From IMG/VR virus record IMGVR_UViG_2703718791_000015: DNA of 5,854 nt. The stretch is one strand, 5' to 3'. Origin of the DNA: a virus. Its lineage: Duplodnaviria > Heunggongvirae > Uroviricota > Caudoviricetes. Each line of letters starts with the position of its first letter. Position 1 is the stretch's first letter. The position numbers and the translations under genes are program-made. Under the pieces are notes generated by a model, which was not told the DNA's origin, made no database searches, and was given only the letters and a program-made list of their open reading frames with translations. Below are positions 1 through 965 of the stretch, piece by piece.

Positions 1-330
1 TAAAGGTTCTCAGTATGTATCGCTGGCCTACGCGCAGCGGCTTAAGGAAGCCGGATTACTGGCATCAACAGGGAGTACTGGCGACTCGTATGACAACGCG
101 ATGGCTGAGAGCATCAATGGTCTTTACAAAGCGGAGGTAATACACCGTAATAGCTGGAAAAACCGGACAGAAGTGGAACTGGCCACACGAACGTGGGTGG
201 ACTGGTATAACAATCGACGATTGCTGGAAAGGCTGGGCCATATTCCTCCGGCAGAAGCAGAAAAAGCTTATTATGCTTCCATCGGAAATAATGATCTGGC
301 AGCCTGAGTTCACAGATAAAATACTCTCCA
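1..330 (+). mobile_element. Right-hand portion of an IS3-family insertion sequence; the right boundary is not resolved and lies somewhere between about 308 and 400
   Basis: Transposase 3' end at 2..307. IS3-family elements end in ...CA shortly after the orfB stop; candidate ends are at 312, 330 and 349. The terminal inverted repeat cannot be confirmed because the left end is outside the window. Confidence 0.6.
2..307 (+). CDS. IS3-family DDE transposase (OrfB), C-terminal fragment; 5' end lies outside the window
   Basis: Frame open from nt 2 to TGA at 305-307, reading KGSQYVSLAYAQRLKEAGLLASTGSTGDSYDNAMAESINGLYKAEVIHRNSW... The GSQY.S ... DxxDNAxAES...LKxE pattern is the C-terminal part of the IS3-family (rve) catalytic core. 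The exact IS identity was not recognised. Confidence 0.85.
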   Translation, partial: KGSQYVSLAYAQRLKEAGLLASTGSTGDSYDNAMAESINGLYKAEVIHRNSWKNRTEVELATRTWVDWYNNRRLLERLGHIPPAEAEKAYYASIGNNDLAA

Positions 331-965
331 GGAAACCCGGGGCGGTTCAGTCGTTCCGGGAGTTCCTGAAACGCACACCAAGAGATCGCATAACGCTCGG
401 CACTTTTAGTGATGTGAAGGAGTGGTTGTCGTCATTTGAAGCCGATCGCGCCGGGCGCAAAGATACAGCCTCTGCTGGCCCGGTAAATAAGCTGGCAATG
501 CCGCTTGTGAATCTGTCTCGTTCTCCCGCATTTTCAATTTATGAAGGTGAACTGTGCCGGGATAATTACGATGAAGGGCATGTCACCAATGAAAATGATG
601 AGATGGAAGCCCTGGTATCGACTATCCCTTTCTCACTGGAATATTCGCTATGGATAGCCAGTGACGAGAAGGAATCTCTTGGGATGGTTACAACTGCATT
701 AGCATTCTGGCTACGAATGTATGCCAGCCTCGGGCAGGCATCTTTCACTCACACTGCCAATGTCGGCGGTTATGAGATACCGGTTACCTGTTACATAGAA
801 GGGCAAAAATCAATCGCATTTCAGGATCTGACCACCGGCACCGCCGACAACAGGCTGTTCGCGGTTGGATTGAACCTCACAGTAGTGGCGGAGCTTCCTA
901 TCCTGGCTTATATGCAGCAAACCACCGGCACCATAACGGTAAAAGCGAAAATTCTGGAGGAATGA
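273..965 (+). CDS. Phage tail or baseplate-associated protein of unknown function (possibly gpU/X-like by position before the hub); true 5' end uncertain, and the first codons overlap the IS so are probably not native
   Basis: Long ORF ending at TGA 963-965, 1 nt before the hub gene start. At least 6 in-frame ATA codons (321, 390, 654, 777, 795, 933), the same codon bias as the neighbouring tail genes. No convincing SD before ATG 273; an alternative internal start is ATG 498. No family-specific motif recognised. Confidence 0.5.

Follow-up and report, generated by a model that had tools for sequence, protein, structure and literature searches.

The window (the whole stretch of DNA that was analysed, 5,854 nt) is best explained by the insertion of a 1310-bp element of the IS629/IS1203 group into a P1-like phage-plasmid of E. 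coli, an event that split gene 24, which encodes the tail terminator; we assign this explanation a probability of about 0.88. Seven sizeable ORFs and one tRNA were recognized in the window, which is laid out as the right end of an IS, 5478 bp of P1 DNA and the left end of an IS. The IS lies at codon 57/58 of gene 24, pointing along the late operon, and the tciB gene is cut 5478 bp downstream by another copy of this IS, in direct orientation.

The P1-derived segment and its interrupted gene 24

The DNA between the IS ends (350-5827) was 98-99.4% identical at the nucleotide level to P1 and P1-like phage-plasmids. Identity to roughly 90-kb E. coli phage-plasmids reached 99.2-99.4% over positions 348-5827, that to P1 was 98.0-99.0% over 348-3629 and 3918-5827, and the part from 350 to 2608 showed 98.9% identity to P1 and 99.8% to phage SJ46. 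The matches in the phage collection were P1, P7 and SJ46 (98.8-99.8%), in favour of which an SSU5-like phage-plasmid, our first guess from the plasmid matches, was dropped. The gene order 24-6-5-dbn-ban-trnI-tciC-tciB (names taken from the P1 record AF234172), combined with this high identity, places the segment among the P1-like elements, and, as judged by sequence comparison, the source DNA is a P1-like phage-plasmid (Punavirus) of E. coli. The window shares with P1 itself the gene order from 24 to tciB, 98-99% nucleotide identity and a gp24 part that departs from the P1 protein in only two residues (I142M and I192T), but it differs from P1 in that codons 1-56 of gene 24 have been cut off by the IS, in a 288-nt insertion between dbn and ban (3630-3917), and in the cut tciB gene.

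Alignment to the intact genes of pCARB35_01 (L001) and of a second locus (L002) showed the IS junction (349/350) to fall within P1 gene 24, which comes fourth in the late operon 26-25-7-24-6-5. In this gene of 786 nt (261 codons), base 350 is equivalent to nt 171, and the GTG start is located 170 nt upstream of the junction in uninterrupted relatives. The first-pass annotation had suspected the insertion to have truncated a tail gene, and had proposed an alignment with intact tail clusters in order to find the junction and the native start; the comparison yielded both, and confirmed the truncation, codons 1-56 being absent from the window. What is left is the 3' part of gene 24 (nt 171-786; positions 350-965, + strand), coding for gp24 residues 58-261 and the stop codon, while codon 57 (Gln) was rebuilt by chance from the terminal CA of the IS and the G that follows it. 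In place of the full-length protein of 261 residues, the window encodes only residues 57/58-261.

In pCARB35_01 the uninterrupted gene (5833-6618, 786 nt, GTG start) is annotated 'baseplate'. Gene 24 was intact (786 nt) in all 26 related loci that were fetched; 18 of them share the exact 40 nt that follow the junction, and these 18 are also identical in the 30 nt that precede it. The region was contiguous in 483 of the 489 matching complete E. coli records. These relatives leave practically no room for the view, raised in the first-pass annotation as a refutation of its own proposal, that the IS lies between genes and that the tail ORF natively starts near 273-500, with no loss of coding sequence: the GTG start lies 170 nt upstream of the junction in P1 and in each of the 26 related loci, the last 30 nt ahead of the junction belong to coding sequence, and the solved Gp24 chain of P1 comprises 261 residues.

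The interrupted gene, previously assigned to the baseplate, is that of the tail terminator. Full-length gp24 matched chain y of PDB 8JAN over residues 1-261 (E 3e-170), and the protein has been identified as the hexameric tail terminator by cryo-EM (PMC10304247; PDB 8JAN) and as a virion protein by mass spectrometry (PMC9024508). At the level of its sequence, gene 24 of the window is a disrupted copy of a T4 gp15-like tail terminator gene rather than a functional member of this group.

Every complete ORF in the P1-derived segment is intact. Downstream of gene 24, on the + strand, lie gene 6 (967-1983), encoding the baseplate hub (PDB 9VZK Gp6 over residues 1-338, E 1e-225; phrog_1390), and gene 5 (1976-2608), encoding the central spike or needle (PDB 9VZK Gp5 over residues 1-210, E 2e-136; Pfam Phage_base_V). 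The - strand carries a dbn homologue (2655-3629), a possible glycosyltransferase according to phrog_2518 (E 1e-231), a weak Glycos_transf_1 match and the P1 annotation; a 100-aa ORF of phrog_12809 (function unknown; 3629-3928), located in the 288-nt insertion; and ban (3928-5292), the gene of a DnaB-type replicative helicase (Pfam DnaB_C, E 1e-107, and DnaB; P1 annotation). Further along the same strand are a tRNA with anticodon CAT (5579-5654), called Met by ARAGORN and trnI (tRNA-Ile2) in the P1 record and RefSeq, and tciC (5658-5765, 35 aa), recognized by translation and alignment to P1.

Between dbn and ban, relatives show both types of arrangement, the P1 type with a Dbn of 332 aa and the type with 100 + 324 aa. 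A 454-aa Ban occurs as an identical protein in 7431 blocks of the collection index, and the exact sequences of gp6 and of the 100-aa ORF are likewise common in the collection; the exact-sequence look-up of the 456-aa Ban in this collection gave no record.

Boundaries of the insertion sequence and its second copy

Positions 1-349 (+ strand) belong to a 1310-bp element of the IS3 family (IS629/IS1203 group), of which they constitute the right end (IS nt 962-1310); they matched a copy in E. coli E2865 at 347 of 349 positions and the end of contig LOGC01000017.1 at all 349. This end contains the last 101 codons and the stop codon of the transposase gene orfB (2-307, stop at 305-307, + strand), uninterrupted by any stop or frameshift. 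Two Pfam domains were detected in it, rve_3 (E 1.8e-12, 47.2 bits, cut-off 26.5) and rve_2 (E 1.8e-7, 31.6 bits, cut-off 22), as is typical of a DDE transposase with an integrase core of the IS3 family. Together with the mere two differences from the E2865 copy, the rve domains bear out the original description of an IS3-family element with a transposase ending at 307. The 1-349 stretch has matches in over 6000 E. coli records, which excludes a chance match.

Members of the IS3 family transpose by a copy-out-paste-in route via their DDE transposase, and are marked by two overlapping ORFs, a programmed -1 frameshift, target duplications of 3-4 bp and a length of about 1.2-1.5 kb. The boundary of the element in the window is base 349 (...GGGGCGGTTCA, last bases GGTTCA), beyond the transposase stop at 307, because the likeness to three independent, differently flanked copies, namely those of E2865 (L003), of a locus labelled IS1203 (L029) and of LOGC01000017.1 (L014), ceases at this position. 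The right terminal inverted repeat (323-349, + strand) ends with CA at 348-349; its comparison with the left repeat revealed 13/13 matching bases, a 3-base gap in the match and then 9/9 matching bases. Together with the TG at 5828-5829, these are the imperfect TG...CA inverted repeats of the IS3 family.

The alignment with plasmids starts at 348 and so appears to overlap the IS end by 2 bases, because the target by chance reads CA ahead of GTCG. A longer IS, suggested by some O26/O111 copies that match through base 355, was rejected as a coincidence of flanking sequence (GTGGTT vs GTCGTT). By analogy with the E2865 and L029 copies, a 3-bp target duplication, GTC, is predicted at 350-352, with its partner copy outside the window.

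The window shows just 349 nt and 27 nt of the IS, the full-length relatives being 1310 bp long. A complete copy of the latter kind, present in E2865 (L003 640-1949), starts with TGAACCGCCCCGG and ends with CCGGGGCGGTTCA, is bordered by a 3-bp target duplication (GTG), and has an annotated programmed frameshift and AL1L pseudoknot; the copy in L029 (311-1620) is bordered by the 3-bp duplication GGC. With the IS629/IS1203 elements of prophages of Shiga-toxin-producing E. coli (STEC) the element has in common the TG...CA termini and, as seen in its full-length relatives, the length of 1310 bp, the annotated programmed frameshift and the 3-bp duplications, but the allele in the window is a variant that is only 89-96% identical to IS1203 in the orfB half. 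In RefSeq, the closest copies of this allele are labelled merely 'IS3 family transposase'. Disruption of prophage tail genes by IS629 has been reported in Shiga-toxin-producing E. coli (PMC13596339).

Overall, the E2865 copy is 96.0% identical to the copy labelled IS1203 in RefSeq. Compared with L029, the E2865 variant is a mosaic, with the first ~500 nt almost identical to IS1203 and an orfB half of 89-96% identity. This mosaic structure may account for the position at which the assembler broke the contig.

The second IS end was overlooked in the first-pass annotation. Positions 5828-5854 (+ strand), which start with TG and match nt 1-27 of the E2865 IS at 27/27 bases, represent the left inverted repeat of a second copy, in direct orientation relative to the first, and the identity to uninterrupted plasmids ends at 5827. 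This copy has cut off the first 102 nt of tciB (DUF3927), the last 20 codons and stop of which are retained (5765-5827, - strand).

An exact-sequence look-up of the partial transposase gave one contig end, that of LOGC01000017.1 (GCA_001606595.1). Its first base is IS nt 962, the same coordinate as in the window, and it is identical to the window in 349/349 bases, including both private SNPs of this IS allele, which points to contig breakage within IS repeats. Most probably the window is a short-read contig in its entirety. LOGC01000017.1 itself (L014 1-351) is a chromosomal contig, in which the IS end adjoins a phage-type integrase gene.

Simple insertion and the alternatives to it

If the two IS copies had arrived by simple insertion, nt 1-173 of gene 24 would be joined to the left IS end (...AATGATCGCATTAACCAGTC joined to TGAACCGCC), with duplication of GTC, and the right end of the second copy would be joined to the rest of tciB (GGTTCA joined to CAACGCCCCGTCC, also written GGGGCGGTTCA joined to CAACGCCCCGTCCG), with duplication of CAA. 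Neither of the junctions present in the window was found by BLAST in complete E. coli genomes and PLSDB, and exact-pattern scans of genome, viral and metagenome contigs did not detect the right junction of the first copy. The predicted left junction (...AATGATCGCATTAACCAGTC joined to TGAACCGCCCCGG) was likewise absent from exact-pattern scans, and the predicted 5' remnant (gp24 1-57 plus IS read-through), used as a protein query, retrieved three gp24 fragments, none with an IS junction. Since no searched record contains either junction or an outer junction, a simple insertion is indistinguishable from an IS-bounded remnant, which constitutes the main remaining alternative.

According to this alternative, which we regard as possible but rather unlikely, the 5478-bp P1 segment would be a remnant or relocated fragment bounded by ISs, and 349/350 the end-point of a rearrangement that occurred through IS recombination or deletion; the remainder of the phage-plasmid would then lie elsewhere or have been lost. 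This alternative is favoured by the directly oriented ends of one and the same IS that border the P1 DNA on both sides, by the presence of the same IS allele in the chromosomal contig LOGC01000017.1, and by the decay of P1-like elements to plain plasmids or integrated prophages (PMC10879196). A precedent is offered by plasmid p95JB1A (NZ_CP021336.1) of E. coli 95JB1, which, like the window, carries a 1310-bp IS (IS1203; L032 4133-5442) inside gene 24 and co-oriented with the operon. In contrast to the window, however, the IS of p95JB1A follows nt 32 of gene 24 and lacks a target duplication, and a deletion that runs from gene 24 to dmt has brought the IS next to rdgC. The insertion in p95JB1A is an independent event of the IS629 family in gene 24, and it shows how IS insertions in this gene proceed to delete the region.

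Nothing speaks directly against a remnant, but two independent simple insertions fit the data equally well, and the identity of 99.2-99.4% together with the intact ORFs is consistent with a recent event of either kind.

An assembly artefact at 349/350, in which an IS read was joined chimerically to P1 DNA, appears very improbable to us. The window does resemble a short-read contig ending in repeats, and neither junction occurs in any collection searched, but the joins coincide exactly with the canonical IS termini (CA at 349, TG at 5828), as is the case in transposition and unlike random chimeras.

Probable consequences for the late operon and the tail

The gp24 reading frame is open back to the stop codon at 138-140, and its first ATG (273) lies inside the transposase gene, in another frame; the first-pass annotation had correctly noted that the tail frame runs back into the IS. 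The ORF that begins at this ATG (273-965, + strand, 230 aa) is a chance fusion, composed of 25 IS-coded residues, the hybrid Gln and gp24 residues 58-261. A good ribosome-binding site was found neither before ATG 273 nor before ATG 291, and the exact sequence of the fusion product had no record in the gene-position collection. We conclude that ATG 273 is no gene start, and that the fusion, which may be expressed at a low level, is an artefact lying over the 3' part of the tail-terminator gene. In annotations, 273-965 is best labelled a pseudogene with an IS interruption.

The IS is not situated at the 5' edge of the tail module, where it had originally been placed: in P1, genes 26, 25 and 7 lie upstream of gene 24, and the sole annotated promoters of the operon, P26 and LP26, precede gene 26. 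The orientation of the IS is that of the late operon (from LP26 through 26-25-7-24-6-5), and transcripts initiated at LP26 or at the transposase promoter could therefore read through into 24'-6-5. Genes 6 and 5 are now 1.3 kb further from LP26, and polarity on 24'-6-5, arising from the poorly translated orfB stretch, is likely. Gene 6 keeps its own ribosome-binding site (GGAGGA), seven bases before the ATG. With no promoter of their own, genes 6 and 5 would depend entirely on read-through across the IS for their transcription, which would probably be reduced; plasmid maintenance would be expected to remain unaffected.

The right ends of IS3-family elements carry a -35 element that is used in the circle-junction promoter. 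This property, together with the co-orientation of the IS and the operon and with a gp24 frame that is open into the IS and contains ATGs at 273 and 291, could be taken to favour expression of 24'-6-5 from an outward promoter of the IS, or from one of these start codons, with a shortened terminator that either works or acts as an inhibitor. We consider this improbable, and the IS-derived promoter proposed in the first-pass annotation found no support: no sigma-70-like site was present in 1-1100 (0 found vs 1.3 expected by chance), no LP26-like late-promoter pattern was matched on the + strand of the window, and no good Shine-Dalgarno sequence precedes either ATG. Moreover, the lost residues include the sheath-binding N-terminal strand and part of the core (PMC10304247).

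[quoted passage not shown] The loss of residues 1-56 removes the whole N-terminal strand (2-22) and the first 34 residues of the core. Judging from this structure and from the residues that are missing, the split terminator is most likely non-functional, and the prophage would most likely form neither stable tails that can be joined to heads nor infectious particles, unless gp24 is supplied in trans. The P1-like element is therefore predicted to be a plasmid only or a defective prophage, with no phage spread or transduction.

Two further proposals seem to us highly doubtful, namely that the IS-flanked segment of 5.5 kb (24'-6-5-dbn-orf100-ban-trnI-tciC-tciB') is a composite-transposon-like or excisable unit, or else that the IS-fused terminator lacking its N-terminus poisons the tails of incoming P1-like phages. 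If the former were true, a DnaB-type helicase, a tRNA, and the baseplate hub and spike genes would move between replicons; the latter would mean an interference function created by an IS.

The insertion into gene 24 would be an ordinary event of an already known kind, the IS-driven decay of P1-like phage-plasmids, which are known to decay by gene loss (PMC10879196). A known IS has in this case interrupted, and most likely knocked out, a known and structurally characterised phage gene, and no new question is opened.

An additional observation was made on metagenome contig k141_53844 (ENA, 645 nt; L030 310-603), in which unrelated sequence takes the place of gene 24 after codon 54. This may be another disruption near the same site of gene 24, or a chimera of metagenome assembly.
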